In this document: one piece after another, positions 1 through 5,521 of the stretch
Position numbering within the stretch: position 1 is the stretch's first letter
How the letters are laid out: every line of letters starts with the position of its first letter
Assembly: GCA_963668315.1 (NCBI GenBank)
Contig: OY764216.1
Location: 1,504,001 to 1,568,000, forward strand
Length of the DNA stretch: 64,000 nucleotides
Source: Spirochaetia bacterium
GTDB taxonomy: Bacteria > Spirochaetota > Spirochaetia > DSM-2461
Direction: 5' to 3'
The notes under the pieces: generated by a model
What the model was told of the DNA's origin: nothing
The model's input: only the letters and a program-made list of their open reading frames with translations
The model's database searches: none
Position numbers and translations under genes: made by a program

Positions 1-1710
1 GGTCAGGGTCAGGATAATTCTGCGGCGCCCGTCCCGGTAGTAGACTTCGCCCTTGAGGCTCACTTCCCCCCCCTCTTCACAGGGCTCGAGGCCGTGGACG
101 ATGGCGTTCTCCACCAGGGGCTGCAGCAGGAGACGGGGAAGATGGACATTCCTCAGCTCCCCGGGAATGGAAAAGTCGTACCGGAGCCGGTTTCCGAAAC
201 GGATTTTCTGCAGTTCGCAGTAGGTAATAAGAAAATCCGTTTCCTCCCCCAGGGTGGACCATTTTTCCTGATGGGTCACATAGCGGAGCATCTCCCGCAG
301 GGAGAGAATCGCCTTCTCCAGCTGTTTCTGATCCCCCATGCGGTTCAGGCCGACGAAGCCGTTAAGAACGTTATAGATAAAATGGGGCTGAACCTGGGAC
401 TGGAGCGCATTATATTCGGCATCCCTCTTTTCCAGGACTTCCCGGTATTTCGTATGGTTATCCAGCGCCAGGGAGACATAATCGGCAAAATTATTCATAC
501 GGATGACGGACAGGTCGGAGAACTGTTTATCCCGGTCATCGATGACGGACATGAGAAGCCCGATAAGGGAACCATCAATGAGAAGGGGCAGAATGATTCT
601 TTTCAGCGGCAGGGAGGAGGGCAGGGGATTTCCCCTGCGCAGCAGGGCGTACTCTTCTTCGGACAGGGGGAGAATCTCCTCCGTCGGATGGTCTCCCCCT
701 TTGTGTACCTTGAGCACCATCTGGTGATTAATGGGCTCGTAAAGATAAACAGCCGCCCTGTCCGCCATGGTGTCATTGATGATCGTATCCGCCACCAGTT
801 CCAGGACCTCCTCCCGGGAGGATCCTTCCACAAGGGACGTGCCCATATCACGGGTCAGATTCAGAATACCGTCGATATTGGCCTTCAAATCGGCGGAAAG
901 GCTGTTGACGCTGACCAGCAGCCCGGTAAGTTCATCCTTGTCGTTTTTTTCTGAGGTATAGGTGAAATCTCCCCGGGCAATCCGGGAGAAGGCCTGGTTC
1001 ACCCGGGATATTTTCCTGATAATCTCCATGGAGAGGAGCCGGGCGTAAACAATGGACAGGCTGCCGGCGAAGAGACTGAACACGATGAAAGTCAGAAAGA
1101 GATTCCGCTCCAGCCTGAGGCTTTTCTCCCTGAAGGAGGAGAAAAAGTGGTTCATGTAACTTTCAAAGGTATTGGTAAAGTAATAGGAGGTATCCCGGAA
1201 TTCCTGGAAGAAGGGGTTCAGATCGGCATCAACCTGCATGGCCCGGTAAAGATTCTCTCCCTCCAGATCCATACCCTGAATGACCAGGAGAATGGAGGAC
1301 ATGGTATCGAGCCGTTTCAGGGCGCGCTCATTCAGAGTCAGGGCCGTATCGTAGCTGTCCTGAAGCTCATCCTCCTGAAAGATATCCATCTCCCTGTCGT
1401 CGAGGAAATCATCAAAGGTTTTCTGGTACTCCCTGACGGCCTTTTCCCAGGTCCTGAAGGTTACCAGAGAACGGGGAGAGTAGGTAAGGGAGCGTATCTG
1501 ACCGTATACCTGCGGGGCGAAAAGGTCGAAAACCAGATCCTTCATAAGCCCCATGACGCGCTGGGACTGGTTCAGGAGCTCCTGACCCAGAAATATGGTC
1601 TGATTCAGACGCTGAACCCTGTTGCCGTTCCAGAGGGACAGTCCCGTTATGGAAAGGAGGGAGAAAATCATGAGGCCGTTCAGAATGAGCAGTTTCCGCC
1701 GGATTTTCAT
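1..1710 (-). CDS. YesM/LytS-type sensor histidine kinase (TM-HAMP-His_kinase-HATPase), 3' end runs off the window
   Basis: Hand-translated, not in ORF track: start MKIRRKLLILNGLMIFSLL at 1710; motifs LQSQVQPHFIYNVLN and LLLQPLVENAIVHG in the same frame. Confidence 0.9.
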   Translation of the reverse strand, partial: MKIRRKLLILNGLMIFSLLSITGLSLWNGNRVQRLNQTIFLGQELLNQSQRVMGLMKDLVFDLFAPQVYGQIRSLTYSPRSLVTFRTWEKAVREYQKTFDDFLDDREMDIFQEDELQDSYDTALTLNERALKRLDTMSSILLVIQGMDLEGENLYRAMQVDADLNPFFQEFRDTSYYFTNTFESYMNHFFSSFREKSLRLERNLFLTFIVFSLFAGSLSIVYARLLSMEIIRKISRVNQAFSRIARGDFTYTSEKNDKDELTGLLVSVNSLSADLKANIDGILNLTRDMGTSLVEGSSREEVLELVADTIINDTMADRAAVYLYEPINHQMVLKVHKGGDHPTEEILPLSEEEYALLRRGNPLPSSLPLKRIILPLLIDGSLIGLLMSVIDDRDKQFSDLSVIRMNNFADYVSLALDNHTKYREVLEKRDAEYNALQSQVQPHFIYNVLNGFVGLNRMGDQKQLEKAILSLREMLRYVTHQEKWSTLGEETDFLITYCELQKIRFGNRLRYDFSIPGELRNVHLPRLLLQPLVENAIVHGLEPCEEGGEVSLKGEVYYRDGRRRIILTLT

Positions 1711-1837
1711 AGTCCACCCTATCATAACATATATTCAGCCATTGACCAGCTCTTTTTAAGCCGTCCCGCCGGGCAATATCCGTGAGGGAGAAGGAGGGTA
1801 TCGTTTTTTTATTTGGATGGGAAGGTTGAAAATTCAG

Positions 1838-1892: not shown

Positions 1893-3167
1893 TCAATAGT
1901 AACGTATCATTATATAGGCGAAGCTTATGCCCAGACTCAGAAGAGTGATGGGAACGCCGTATTTCAGATAGCTTCCGAAAGAGAGGGACACGTTGTTTTT
2001 CTTGGCAAAGCCGAACATGATGACGTTGGCGGAAGCTCCGACGAGAGTTCCGTTGCCGCCCAGACAGGCGCCCAGGGAGAGGCTCCACCAGAGGGGGCCC
2101 AGTTCCGCGGCTGCATGACCGGTTCCCACCAGCTTGACCACGGGAATGAAGGTGGCCACCAGGGGAATATTATCGAGGATACCGGAGAAAATACCCGAGA
2201 AGAAGAGAAGAAGGCTGCTTGTCGCCTGCATCTCCCCCTGCGTCAGGTGGATCATCCATTCGGCCAGACTGTCAATGATTCCGGCGTATTCCAGAACGCC
2301 AACCATGATGAAAAGGCCGATGAAGAAGAGAATCGTATCCCATTCCACTTTCTTGAGCAGCTCCTCTATGTCGTTTTCAGACCAGATGATGAGAGCGCAG
2401 GCCCCGATGAGGGCGATGATGCTCGGCTCCGTTTCCAGGGCGCCGTGGAGGATGAACCCCAGAAGAACGAATCCCAGAACGACTAGGGATTTTTTCATCA
2501 GCTTCGGATTATGGATCATCTTCTTCTCATCCATTCTGAGAATGCGGTCCTTATTTTCCTGGGTTATGGTCAGGTACTTCCTGAAAATCAGCAGTAGCAC
2601 GAGAACGGTCACGACCGAAATTATCAGGACGACCGGCGCCACATTGGTGATGAAGGCCATAAAAGAGAGCTGGGCGGCCGATCCGATCATGATATTGGGG
2701 GGATCTCCGATCAGCGTGGCCGTACCGCCTATGTTGGACGCCAGAATCTCCGTGATGATGAAGGGGAGGGCATTAATCTCCATCTGGGTCGTCAGCAGCA
2801 GGGTAACGGGGGAGATCAGGAGGACCGTGGTGACATTATCGAGGAGGGCGGAGAAAATCGCCGTAATGAAAAAGAGAACCACGAGAAAGCTGACCGGATT
2901 GGCCTTTACCGCCTTGGCCGCCTTGATGGCAACAAATTCGAATACGCCGCACTGTTCGGTGATTTTCACAATCAGCATCATGCCCATGAGAAGGAAAATA
3001 ACGTTGGTATCGATATGTTCCACCGCTTCATGGAAGGGGATGAAGTGGAAGACCAAGTAAATACAGGCTCCCAGAAGCACGGCAATGGCTTTGTTTATCT
3101 TTTCCGTTACGAATAGTGTGTAAATGAGAATGAAAATTCCCAAAGCTAAAATGGTATGTATGTTCAT
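1893..3167 (-). CDS. ArsB/NhaD (ion transporter superfamily, P-protein-like) permease
   Basis: About 12 hydrophobic segments; SALLDNVTTVL, ASNIGGTATLIGDPPNIMIG, DNIPLVA and LGGNGTLVGASAN motifs. Confidence 0.9.
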   Translation of the reverse strand: MNIHTILALGIFILIYTLFVTEKINKAIAVLLGACIYLVFHFIPFHEAVEHIDTNVIFLLMGMMLIVKITEQCGVFEFVAIKAAKAVKANPVSFLVVLFFITAIFSALLDNVTTVLLISPVTLLLTTQMEINALPFIITEILASNIGGTATLIGDPPNIMIGSAAQLSFMAFITNVAPVVLIISVVTVLVLLLIFRKYLTITQENKDRILRMDEKKMIHNPKLMKKSLVVLGFVLLGFILHGALETEPSIIALIGACALIIWSENDIEELLKKVEWDTILFFIGLFIMVGVLEYAGIIDSLAEWMIHLTQGEMQATSSLLLFFSGIFSGILDNIPLVATFIPVVKLVGTGHAAAELGPLWWSLSLGACLGGNGTLVGASANVIMFGFAKKNNVSLSFGSYLKYGVPITLLSLGISFAYIMIRYY

Positions 3168-4063
3168 TAAGGCCTCAGCATTTTATCTATAATCTGATTG
3201 GGATGTATAATTCCCTTAAGGTTATCCATGGGGTCCATAACAAGGAGATGGCGCCGGTTGCCCTTTATCATAAGAAAGAATATCTCGGGATAGCTGGCGT
3301 CGCTGCGGACAATATAGGGACGGTAATCCCGTTTGAACTCGCTGACCTTCAGCTCATTTTCCCGGCTCCAGAAAAACTTTACCGGCTTGAAATCCTGTAT
3401 GAGTGAGAGATCGCTCAGGCTGAAGACGTAATCGGGAAAGCCCGCCTTCAGGAGATCCACCAGATCGAGAACGCCGCAGAGCTTATTCGTACTGCGGGAC
3501 AGGATGGGAAGAAGGTAGACCGAGTGCTGTTTCATGAGGTCAAGAGCTCTTCCCACCGTATCGTCTTCATAAACGGTGGGCCACTTCTTCGCCAGGTCGG
3601 AAGCCTTGAGAGGCATTCCGGTGATATGGGTCGATTCGCTGATGACGCTCAGAATATCTTCCGGTTTCGAACTGCGGTTGAGGCGATCGGCCTCCTCTTT
3701 CATCAGTTTTCCGATATCCTGCAGAATGGCAAGATAGGCGTTTCCCTCGTTGCCGGAGGTCAGGATGGAAATAATGTAACGGATGCTGTTTCCATCGGGC
3801 AGGAGAAGGGGCTTTTTACAGCGGATAAACAGGATGTGGATCCCTTCTACCAGAGGACTGTGGTTATGGGGCATGACCGTATCGGCTCCGATCCAGGTGG
3901 ATCCGATTTTCTCACGCTGCTGTAAAAGGTCCAGCACTTTGTCCTTTCCCAGGGATGTGGATTCCCCGAATTGTTCCGCCAGGAAGAGAAGAGCCTCCTC
4001 CCAGTCTGAAAAATGTTTGTCCAGGAAAACTTTTTCCCGGGATAGGTACTTGCTAAACGGCAT
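3167..4063 (-). CDS. PTS EIIA (Ntr/Fru-type) domain fused to a CBS pair
   Basis: N-half REKIGSTWIGADTVMPH (phosphorylatable His); C-half CBS motifs TVYEDDTVGRALDLM, LCGVLDLVDLL, LKGIIH. Confidence 0.8.
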   Translation of the reverse strand: MPFSKYLSREKVFLDKHFSDWEEALLFLAEQFGESTSLGKDKVLDLLQQREKIGSTWIGADTVMPHNHSPLVEGIHILFIRCKKPLLLPDGNSIRYIISILTSGNEGNAYLAILQDIGKLMKEEADRLNRSSKPEDILSVISESTHITGMPLKASDLAKKWPTVYEDDTVGRALDLMKQHSVYLLPILSRSTNKLCGVLDLVDLLKAGFPDYVFSLSDLSLIQDFKPVKFFWSRENELKVSEFKRDYRPYIVRSDASYPEIFFLMIKGNRRHLLVMDPMDNLKGIIHPNQIIDKMLRP

Positions 4064-4511
4064 AAAGGCGCTCCCTGTTGCCTACGGGCAGTATTTTAAG
4101 AAGGCTGTCGACGGAAACTTCGCCGAGGAGGCAGCCTTTCTTGTCCAAAAGAGGCAGATAGTTCTGATCGCTTTCCACGAAAAGAGCCAGGGCTTCGGCC
4201 ATGCTCTGGCCGGGCGTCAGGTAGGGAAAACGGCTATCCATAAGGTCAATGACCCGGATCTTGTCCAGCCTGTCATCCAGTTCGGGATCGAAGGCGATAC
4301 TTTCGAGGGTACAGTAGAGAGGAGCCAGAAATTCAAGAATCTTCGTCTTCTTTATGACTCCCTGAAGCTGTTCCTGGCAGTCTACGATATAAAAATTGTT
4401 AATTTTCCAGTTAGCCATAAAGGGGTGGAGAATGTCTTTTAATGTGGCGTTTACGGGAAAGAATACCGGTCCCCGGCTGTCTGTTATTTCTGATACTGTG
4501 ATATTTTTCAT
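4053..4511 (-). CDS. CBS-domain protein
   Basis: Two CBS repeats (YIVDCQEQLQGVI; LPLLDKKGCLLGEVS); SD AAGGA upstream; overlaps the next gene. Confidence 0.85.
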   Translation of the reverse strand: MKNITVSEITDSRGPVFFPVNATLKDILHPFMANWKINNFYIVDCQEQLQGVIKKTKILEFLAPLYCTLESIAFDPELDDRLDKIRVIDLMDSRFPYLTPGQSMAEALALFVESDQNYLPLLDKKGCLLGEVSVDSLLKILPVGNRERLYAV

Positions 4512-4517
4512 TTTAAT

Positions 4518-4574
4518 TCCTTATCCTTCTGTAATTAAGAGTTTTTTCTTTGTGCGGTGAAAATCAGATAAGGA
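4518..4574 (-). promoter_or_regulatory. Anti-SD/SD hairpin between the uORF 3' end and the CBS gene RBS
   Basis: Minus-strand TCCTTATC (4574-4567, V-L-I codons) is the exact reverse complement of GATAAGGA (4525-4518, SD of the gene starting at 4511). Confidence 0.65.
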
Positions 4575-4923
4575 CGGGGGGAGCTCTCAGATGAAGAAAC
4601 TGCAGATGGGAGGAGGAGGCATGACCCAGAGACCGGAAAATCTTGAGCCTGTGCTTGACGCCATGGGTGTGGTGGATGGCCGCCAGGGCCAGGGCCAGGG
4701 CCAGGTTGTGGGGCGCCGATTCCCTGCTGCTTTCTTCGTTCTCTTCAGATCCGACGTTTTCTTCCCCTTCCAGCAGAACCAGGTCATCCAGGGGTAAATT
4801 TTCCCCGGCTCTGGAAAAATAGGCATATCCCGTATCGGATATCTCTTCCAGGTGAAGAGGAGCTGCCTCCCAGGCAAGGAGGAAGGCGGGAAGTAAAAGA
4901 AAGGTGAAAAGAATCTTTCTCAT
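4564..4923 (-). CDS. Putative secreted leader/arrest peptide with C-terminal RAPP motif (119 aa)
   Basis: MRKILFTFLLLPAFLLA signal peptide, acidic tract, His cluster, ends HLRAPPVLI*; start re-called from 5016 to 4923 because of the promoter position. Confidence 0.7.
   Translation of the reverse strand: MRKILFTFLLLPAFLLAWEAAPLHLEEISDTGYAYFSRAGENLPLDDLVLLEGEENVGSEENEESSRESAPHNLALALALAAIHHTHGVKHRLKIFRSLGHASSSHLQFLHLRAPPVLI
4682..4705. repeat. Hexamer tandem repeat (GCCAGG)x4 encoding (Leu-Ala)4
   Basis: Seen directly: gccagggccagggccagggccagg. Confidence 0.85.
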
Positions 4924-4929
4924 ACTGGC

Positions 4930-4958
4930 AGTGTAGGCAAATCGGGGGGAGAAGTCAA
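4930..4958 (-). promoter_or_regulatory. Sigma70-type promoter, leaderless
   Basis: TTGACT-N17-TACACT-N6-ATG(4923), no SD. Confidence 0.7.
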
Positions 4959-5002
4959 GAGAATCAACGGACAAAATAGGACAATAACGGACAAAGTTCG
5001 AA

Positions 5003-5521
5003 TCACTGGTATTCAAGGGGGCGGGGAAAAAAGGTGGTAAATGTGAGGAAAAGAGCCTCTACCCCCTTCTTCGGGGAGTTTTTCTCCATCTGGACCAGTT
5101 TCCCGTTGAAAAAGAAGCCGAAATCGGCCCGGCTGCGTCTCGGCAGTCCGCGGGACATCATACTATCCTCTTCGGAACGGTGATAATCGTAGATCCGGTA
5201 GTTCAATGCCGTCAGATCGTCAAAGGAAAAAAGCTGTTCCCGGTAGAGAAAAATCAGCCCCTTTCTAATGCGGCAAATCTCCTCTTTCCTGTCAAAGCTT
5301 ACCGAGTACCGGTACATGCACCCCAGAAAAAGAAGGAGGGGCATGAGAAAGGTATTGATCTTCCCCGCCAGGGACGCCTTCGAGAAATCCTCTCCGCTCA
5401 TGTTTGTGGCAAAGGTCAGAAGAACGGAGAGAAAGAGAAAAATCAGAATTCCCCGCAGGAAGGGATTCATGGAGAAGCTGAGAGTGTCTTTCCTGATTAT
5501 GCGGGCCGAATAGAACGTCAT
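5003..5521 (-). CDS. Hypothetical membrane protein (2 TM), last gene of the opp operon
   Basis: Two hydrophobic helices then a soluble domain; starts 3 nt after the oppF stop. Confidence 0.7.
   Translation of the reverse strand: MTFYSARIIRKDTLSFSMNPFLRGILIFLFLSVLLTFATNMSGEDFSKASLAGKINTFLMPLLLFLGCMYRYSVSFDRKEEICRIRKGLIFLYREQLFSFDDLTALNYRIYDYHRSEEDSMMSRGLPRRSRADFGFFFNGKLVQMEKNSPKKGVEALFLTFTTFFPRPLEYQ

Follow-up and report, generated by a model that had tools for sequence, protein, structure and literature searches.

The window analyzed here, a 64-kb stretch of a Spirochaetia bacterium genome, carries on its reverse strand a 119-aa open reading frame (ORF), followed by genes for a stand-alone tandem CBS protein, a fusion of PTS EIIA with a CBS pair and an IT-superfamily transporter (Table 1). 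The ORF has a signal-peptide-like start and a RAPP motif near its end, and between the two lie a glutamate tract, an (LA)4 patch and a His-rich stretch. The sequence description given by the first-pass annotation of this region matched the letters of the window base for base. The putative signal peptide was read from the basic start and the hydrophobic run; its cleavage site is not conserved. By analogy with ApdA and ApdP (PMC10951233, PMC12992588), P115 would occupy the P site and P116 the A site at the predicted stall.

Table 1. Positions of the leader, its control elements and the downstream genes in the window.
Feature	Position	Strand	Remarks
Three 10-bp direct repeats	4966..4995	-	candidate operator with core WWGTCC; 7 nt between its end and the -35
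Sigma-70-type promoter	4930..4958	-	TTGACT (4958-4953)-N17-TACACT (4935-4930); 6 nt before ATG 4923
Candidate arrest-peptide leader ORF	4564..4923	-	119 aa; ATG 4923, C-terminus HLRAPPVLI*
Signal-peptide-like start	4873..4923	-	MRK + 14 hydrophobic residues; read from sequence; same build across leader alignments
Glu tract E52-E68	4720..4770	-	core E60-E64, 51-55 residues before P-site Pro115
(LA)4 patch	4682..4705	-	from 6-bp tandem repeat; lineage-specific
His-rich stretch	4591..4671	-	kept in close relatives only
RAPP codons R113-P116	4576..4587	-	3 residues before stop
Anti-SD arm TCCTTATC(TGA)	4564..4574	-	+8 to +16 from P-site codon; predicted
SD region GATAAGGA of CBS gene	4515..4528	-	3' arm of helix; predicted
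Stand-alone tandem CBS protein	4053..4511	-	152 aa; PF00571 E 6e-14; below all NCBIfam cut-offs
PTS EIIA (PF00359) + CBS pair fusion	3167..4063	-	298 aa; Pfam
IT-superfamily transporter, ArsB/NhaD/DASS-like	1893..3167	-	424 aa; CitMHS PF03600 E 1e-85

Searches of Pfam, NCBIfam and Rfam place the leader in no family, and the Rfam search over the leader and the intergenic region gave one chance-level match (E 0.69) and no known riboswitch or structured RNA. The 30 clusters nearest to the leader in the ESM Atlas are unnamed; the nearest named ones, CzcI and DUF6769, lie at 0.94 with low recognition and serve as a lead only. Frames with [RK][AG]PP at most 12 residues from the stop number 390 in the 5.6-Mb genome. 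Four of them pass a crude filter (ATG start, length, hydrophobic start), among which the 119-aa leader alone resembles, by eye, a genuine leader. As the sole convincing frame of this type in the genome, and with a conserved arrangement, the leader is beyond chance.

None of the three downstream genes encodes a Sec or YidC component. For the transporter, the best NCBIfam models are MamN, ArsB, DASS and NhaD, all below cut-off (TIGR00775, NF038006, NF011980 and TIGR00935 included), and the broad PF03600 alone is met. Because it falls below every named NCBIfam cut-off, we keep the assignment at the level of PF03600 and name no substrate. Neither this substrate nor the ligand of the CBS domains (c-di-AMP or adenine nucleotide) could be assigned. 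Directly 3' of the transporter gene lies a gene for a HAMP-GAF-His_kinase (PF06580) sensor kinase (window 1-1725, reverse strand). Just upstream of the candidate operator, a gene on the same strand (5003-5521) encodes a 172-aa membrane protein without a Pfam family, which occupies the same place in the three genomes of the same genus.

Conservation of the leader and of the predicted helix behind it

A profile of the CBS gene recovered 14 loci in 13 of the 38 genomes of the order and one further strong locus among 401 genomes. An [RK][AG]PP leader lies directly upstream in 15/15 close CBS orthologues and is absent before all seven weaker, operon-internal CBS matches (E 1e-15 to 1e-19). An alignment scan of all species genomes with EIIA-CBS gave 16 loci, six of them already in the set; 13 have the leader, and in the three exceptions (L070, L072, L074) the CBS gene is missing too. 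At these CBS and EIIA-CBS loci (15/15 and 13/16), the leaders are 107-120 aa long, with a signal-like start, an [RK][AG]PP tail and a leaderless-type promoter. A comparison of orthologous operons had been proposed with the first-pass annotation, and the combination of signal-like start, RAPP and short tail that it was to examine is indeed conserved ahead of ion-transporter operons in many spirochaetes. Furthermore, a metagenome scan with EIIA-CBS yielded one true orthologue among 19 loci, which was added to the leader set, and one with the CBS protein yielded 442 candidates, none of them confirmed. A leader profile run against 1.84 billion proteins found 30 matches, mostly leaders of 106-138 aa; against the 401 genomes it found nine weak matches besides the query, eight partial and one a full-length RAPP leader before an RND adaptor gene.

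From 49 collected leaders we assembled a set of 33 at <70% identity, after removal of seven proteins (three truncated or extended duplicates and four without the motif). Mean identity in the alignment is 24%, and M1, E60, E61, A114, P115 and P116 alone are invariant or nearly so; the PP is invariant across the 33 leaders and the preceding Ala/Gly nearly so. The R/K falls at residue 102-117 and is followed by a tail of 1-11 aa. A basic start with a hydrophobic run is present in all aligned leaders. Among 23 leaders, 13 carry RAPP, one RGPP (L036) and nine KAPP. In a relative at ~89%, none of the 40 differences listed (out of 55) falls in the two helix arms, and the change in RAPP is synonymous. 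A role for the (LA)4 patch, which the first-pass annotation had listed, is unsupported: the patch is a private 6-bp repeat, missing even from P0004 (74% identical) and from every other leader.

The KAPP leaders form a clade (L037, L066-L068, L073, L075-L077, L079) in which a conserved (F/S)NKAPP replaces LRAPP; several members have a shortened or degraded CBS gene, a mixed-charge tract and no operator. The cargo after the CBS gene is a CitMHS transporter in most loci, and elsewhere EIIA with a cation:proton antiporter (L040, L041), a SulP permease (L042, L044) or an HTH_17-EIIA gene (L043). Other arrangements also occur. At L158:1501-2587, one genome has a second leader, with the operator and without a CBS gene; a short HTH-like remnant comes next, then EIIA and a cation:proton antiporter. 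At L054:1962-2213 the leader and CBS gene are intact, the EIIA-CBS gene is a fragment and no transporter follows. Leaders with signal, Glu patch and RAPP also precede an ABC ATPase/permease pair (L160:1501-2876) and an RND membrane-fusion (adaptor) gene (L140:1459-3038).

The first-pass annotation had further noted that the codons after RAPP are complementary to the SD region of the CBS gene. Indeed, TCCTTATC (4574-4567) and GATAAGGA (4525-4518) match at every base, with the ATG of the CBS gene at 4511, 52 nt past the leader stop; across loci, the gap from stop to next start is 43-79 nt. The 5' arm lies at +8 to +15 from the P-site Pro codon, where a ribosome with Pro115 in the P site would cover it, as had been proposed. 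Both arms pair in the predicted local fold, whose energy of -11.8 kcal/mol is ordinary against shuffles (z 0.33). Orthologues build sequence-divergent helices from other letters (for example, CTTTTCCTG with CAGGAAAAG; AATTTCTC with GAGGAATT), which reach -10 kcal/mol or below in 10/21 loci including the query and are weaker in 11/21, most KAPP loci among these. RNAalifold found no common pairs in a MAFFT alignment of 11 intergenic regions, in which the arms did not align, and energies of cognate and swapped duplexes were used in its place. Cognate duplexes of 5' arm and SD average -9.1 kcal/mol versus -6.2 kcal/mol when swapped, with 0/100,000 permutations (21 loci after removal of two near-duplicates; kin are non-independent).

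SD accessibility was modeled as well. When the RNA up to +15 is removed, the median cost of opening the SD falls from 6.9 to 1.9 kcal/mol, with a drop of at least 1.5 in 18/22 loci (L075 is left out, as its start was not found). Blocking the ribosome footprint lowers the cost by at least 1.5 kcal/mol in 17/23 loci, compared with 4/23 for an upstream block. In the query, the SD is not freed by the footprint block alone (7.6 to 6.1 or 7.9 kcal/mol), since RNA further upstream can pair with it instead; with this RNA also covered, as might be done by queued ribosomes, the modeled cost falls from 6.2 to 1.4-1.5 kcal/mol. An SD-sequestering stem of the SecM type within reach of a stalled ribosome is present in silico for the query, as for the strong helices above.

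Promoter, upstream repeats and the HTH_17-EIIA gene

The promoter of the leader matches the consensus at 9/12 positions; the region holds seven such matches, where 3.0 would be expected. By eye, each of 23 leaders has a TTG(A/C)-type hexamer ~33-37 nt before its start, which fits leaderless transcription; the leader mRNA is likely leaderless.

The direct repeats upstream of this promoter recur before orthologous leaders. A repeat matrix trained on ten orthologous promoters, with the query left out, ranks the query site first in its genome (32.7). The second site (25.2) separates a gene for an amidohydrolase from an EIIA + Na_H_Exchanger operon that runs the other way, and the third (22.5) lies over the start of an HTH_17-EIIA gene. 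The repeat precedes 12/22 leaders, ten of which are the training set, and is missing at both SulP loci and 8/9 KAPP loci. In reversed orientation, and with a score of >13 (99th percentile of 845 control starts, 9.8), it covers the HTH_17-EIIA gene at its promoter or start in 20/29 family loci, one locus being too short. The repeat variant tends to agree within a genome, with GTC/GTC in four genomes of the same genus, TTC/TTC in four others and four ambiguous cases.

Inspection of single loci adds some detail. At the HTH_17-EIIA gene of G000:C1:2627755-2628469 (L099, L102), three 10-bp repeats in reverse orientation separate the -10 from the start codon; by eye, its second paralogue (C1:32696-33289) has no repeat site of this kind. 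At G000:C1:2606790-2608584 (L132), about five repeats separate a divergent M20 amidohydrolase gene from an EIIA + cation:proton antiporter operon, and no RAPP leader was seen in the 190-nt gap before this operon. At L070:2860-2900, the EIIA-CBS/transporter operon without leader and CBS gene has kept the direct repeats and a TTGATT hexamer.

We infer that the HTH_17-EIIA protein, which is encoded elsewhere in the genome, binds the three upstream repeats. This candidate carries HTH_17 (PF12728) fused to PTS EIIA. Winged helices of the BldC type bind to short phased direct repeats in a head-to-tail arrangement (PMC5859096). In E. coli, K+ transport is under the control of EIIA-Ntr (bioRxiv 2023.07.05.547876). 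A sequence search of the PDB with HTH_17-EIIA returned no BldC and phage Gp37 alone (E 0.005), and a literature search on repeats bound by HTH_17/EIIA proteins found nothing relevant. The position of the repeats suggests that the protein might repress its own gene and activate the leader operon. As they are common to the leader promoter and the HTH_17-EIIA gene, the repeats point to a PTS-linked ion-transport regulon.

The glutamate tract and possible release of the predicted stall

Between signal and motif, the Glu tract is the one conserved feature. In the leader alignment, the share of D/E rises to 57% at a distance of 50-54 residues from the P-site Pro. In 28/33 leaders, the most acidic 10-mer has its center 44-62 residues before this Pro (median 53); shuffled leaders gave 9.3 on average and at most 20 (2,000 shuffles), the 44-62-residue window having been set after the D/E profile was seen. 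The tract position varies equally from the N-terminus and from the stall site (sd 6.2 each, 33 leaders); hence the spacing cannot be tied to the stall. Glu outnumbers Asp 129:11 in the tract versus 111:73 in the rest of the leaders, and the net charge of the tract ranges from -3 to -9. Some KAPP leaders have mixed E/R/K tracts, and in L073, L075 and L076 the most acidic 12-residue window nets 0 to -1. A polypurine RNA element was considered in place of a Glu tract and rejected: Arg codons in the tract show no purine bias (AGR 18/49 versus 43/81 elsewhere), which makes the tract a protein-level trait. Since the leaders before the ABC ATPase and the RND adaptor also bear it, the tract is not specific for ion transport.

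From these features, we consider it rather probable that the 119-aa gene is an arrest leader of the SecM type that frees the ribosome-binding site of the CBS/EIIA-CBS/transporter operon. Transcription would start from the leaderless promoter, probably tuned by the HTH_17-EIIA protein on the three repeats, and the signal peptide of the leader would engage Sec. A ribosome stalled on RAPP would cover the anti-SD arm 8-16 bases downstream and free the RBS of the CBS gene, while the Glu tract would stand ~50-55 residues out, level with the translocon or slightly beyond it. Export that is efficient and energized would pull the chain free, translation would terminate three codons on and the helix would close over the SD (off); under weak pulling, the ribosome would stay parked (on). 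The operon would thereby be switched on when the export of its own leader falters. Several observations count against this scheme. Arg is irreplaceable in ApcA, ApdA and ApdP (PMC12992588), yet nine of the 23 leaders have KAPP; the helix is weak in 11/21 loci, RNAalifold gave no common pairs, and in the query the footprint block alone leaves the SD paired; the tract is of mixed charge in several KAPP leaders, has a spacing that cannot be tied to the stall and also occurs before genes outside ion transport; and CruR is released without need of its signal peptide (PMC9426467).

What the tract might report can be narrowed by its position. According to a review (PMC6028853), membrane potential lets acidic stretches draw a SecM-arrested chain through SecYEG, and basic and neutral stretches also gave some release. 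At 40-50 residues from the PTC, a nascent chain encounters SecYEG (PMC7886326). Taken together, a conserved tract ~53 residues out, acidic pull and the distance to SecYEG form the basis for a reading in which the Glu tract would lie in the electric field of SecY at the RAPP stall, and depolarization would prolong the stall and turn the ion transporters on. In a second layer, the HTH_17-EIIA protein would run itself, the EIIA + cation:proton antiporter operon and the leader operon. As a whole, a natural gauge of membrane voltage with a PTS-linked HTH_17-EIIA regulon layer and one KAPP clade remains a tentative proposal on the doubtful side. If it holds, one clade would rely on KAPP, which has failed in every RAPP peptide tested. 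Against the voltage reading speak the equal constancy of the tract from the N-terminus, the preference for Glu over Asp, the mixed E/R/K tracts of some KAPP leaders and the Glu-bearing RAPP leaders before the ABC ATPase and the RND adaptor. Literature searches found no leader peptide that senses proton motive force via stalling at the translocon and, since 2021, no work linking a RAPP arrest peptide, an acidic tract and membrane potential.

Alternatively, the leader might stall and open the SD as above, with the Glu tract itself as the sensor of an ion or of pH, by binding or helix folding, at a site outside the tunnel or in the periplasm, so that the stall is relieved as in CruR or caused as in CutF. 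The strong preference for Glu over Asp would be less expected of bare charge than of a helix or binding surface, the Glu spacing is similar to that in CruR, where 45 residues separate CXXC from RAPP (PMC9426467), and the targets are ion transporters. However, the tract has no fixed ligand pattern, its net charge varies widely and the signal-like start is kept in all leaders, and we regard direct sensing as unlikely. A leader that stalls constitutively and only couples translation at a basal level, with regulation left to the promoter via the HTH_17-EIIA repeats, appears improbable. The conserved operator fits such a division of labor, as do L070, L072 and L074, which run EIIA-CBS/transporter genes without leader or CBS gene; a plain coupler, however, would not need the signal-like start, the length (R at 102-117) and the Glu tract, which are all kept, and 10/22 leader promoters without repeats still keep the leader. 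The stall might instead control Rho-dependent termination in the manner of CruR (PMC9426467), with the SD helix secondary, in line with the weak helices in 11/21 loci and the 43-79-nt gaps after the stop. Strong, sequence-divergent helices that cover the SD at the right offset in 10/21 loci, the query included, speak against this and make it quite improbable. Release by a transition metal bound to the His cluster, as the first-pass annotation had suggested, is highly improbable and unsupported: the query has nine His and P0024 and L038 seven each, but across the 33 leaders His varies from 0 to 9 and Cys from 0 to 5 without a conserved column (the query has no Cys), on which the metal-sensing reading fails, and the His residues of the query, 4-30 residues from the P site, are likely inside the ribosome tunnel at the stall, with no DUF2946 match.

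In sum, the RAPP leader with its predicted SD switch is real and conserved, and probably functional. To the first-pass annotation, the comparison adds the conserved spacing of the Glu tract, the direct repeats before the promoter as a candidate operator, and the clade with KAPP. The family narrows down a question that the census of Fujiwara 2025 left open, namely which force or signal releases RAPP peptides before non-export genes, as its conservation excludes metal ligands and singles out the Glu tract, which lies at roughly the distance of the translocon. It also offers a clean test of whether charge-driven pull, so far confined to engineered SecM constructs, serves as a physiological sensor of membrane energization. 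Moreover, it provides a candidate target set and operator for uncharacterized HTH_17-EIIA proteins, natural KAPP variants with which to probe the chemistry of arrest, and a way into the study of an IT-family transporter without assigned substrate.

Relation to known arrest peptides and regulators

The kind of leader is already known and tabulated; what sets this variant apart is its fixed Glu tract, a clade with KAPP and the candidate operator for HTH_17-EIIA. The first-pass annotation knew of no arrest peptide for this transporter class. This stands for tested cases, as a literature search found no tested RAPP arrest peptide for CBS-domain genes, and not for predicted ones, since Fujiwara 2025 (PMC12992588) tabulates such uORFs. 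The source data of its Fig. 4B count 266 RAPP versus 94 AAPP for CBS targets (11-fold) and 75 versus 81 for cation:proton antiporters (3.6-fold), with rows for NhaD and SulP. At least one member of the leader family is among the rows listed, as P0003 is identical in sequence to row 792 (WP_149484965.1). Like this CBS class, the spirochaete leader is a small protein encoded ahead of a CBS gene, with RAPP close to its C-terminus and a putative localization signal. An acidic patch ~40-50 residues before RAPP is present in many rows of the class from gammaproteobacteria (by eye, 30 rows), whereas acidic tracts are rare in the SecD class, with two Asp patches in 28 rows (by eye; taxa differ from the CBS class). 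The words 'CBS' and 'transporter' never occur in the main text of this source, although its appendix figures may name them; the helix, Glu spacing, operon context, operator and KAPP forms of the spirochaete leaders do not appear to be mentioned there.

With SecM-secA of E. coli and uDF_RQH-secDF2 of Alteromonas naphthalenivorans (PMC10987492), the leader shares a signal-like start, a C-terminal arrest motif and a predicted SD stem-loop; in both systems, the stem-loop over the SD of the next gene is proven to be opened by the stalled ribosome. It differs from them in its non-sec target, leaderless promoter and Glu tract, with sequence likeness compared at the motif only. As its target is not a sec gene, there is no direct feedback on the export machine; the leader would work like SecM, yet is no Sec monitor by target. 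ApdA and ApdP (PMC10951233, PMC12992588) have the RAPP core that is identical in the query and appears as RGPP in L036, but they sit upstream of secDF, and their Arg is irreplaceable where nine of 23 spirochaete leaders have Lys. CruR and CutF (DUF2946, PF11162; PMC9426467, bioRxiv 2025.02.05.636593) are exported uORFs, as is predicted for this leader, with a conserved element at a set distance before a proline arrest motif, and CutF melts a stem-loop over the RBS (bioRxiv 2025.02.05.636593), whereas CruR acts via Rho (PMC9426467). Unlike these, the spirochaete leader has no CXXC, Pfam match or copper genes, and PF11162 matches none of 19 leader-family members. At the promoter, finally, the phased direct repeats and the HTH_17 domain of the candidate binder recall the BldC family (PMC5859096), from which the binder differs by its fusion to PTS EIIA and its other repeat word.
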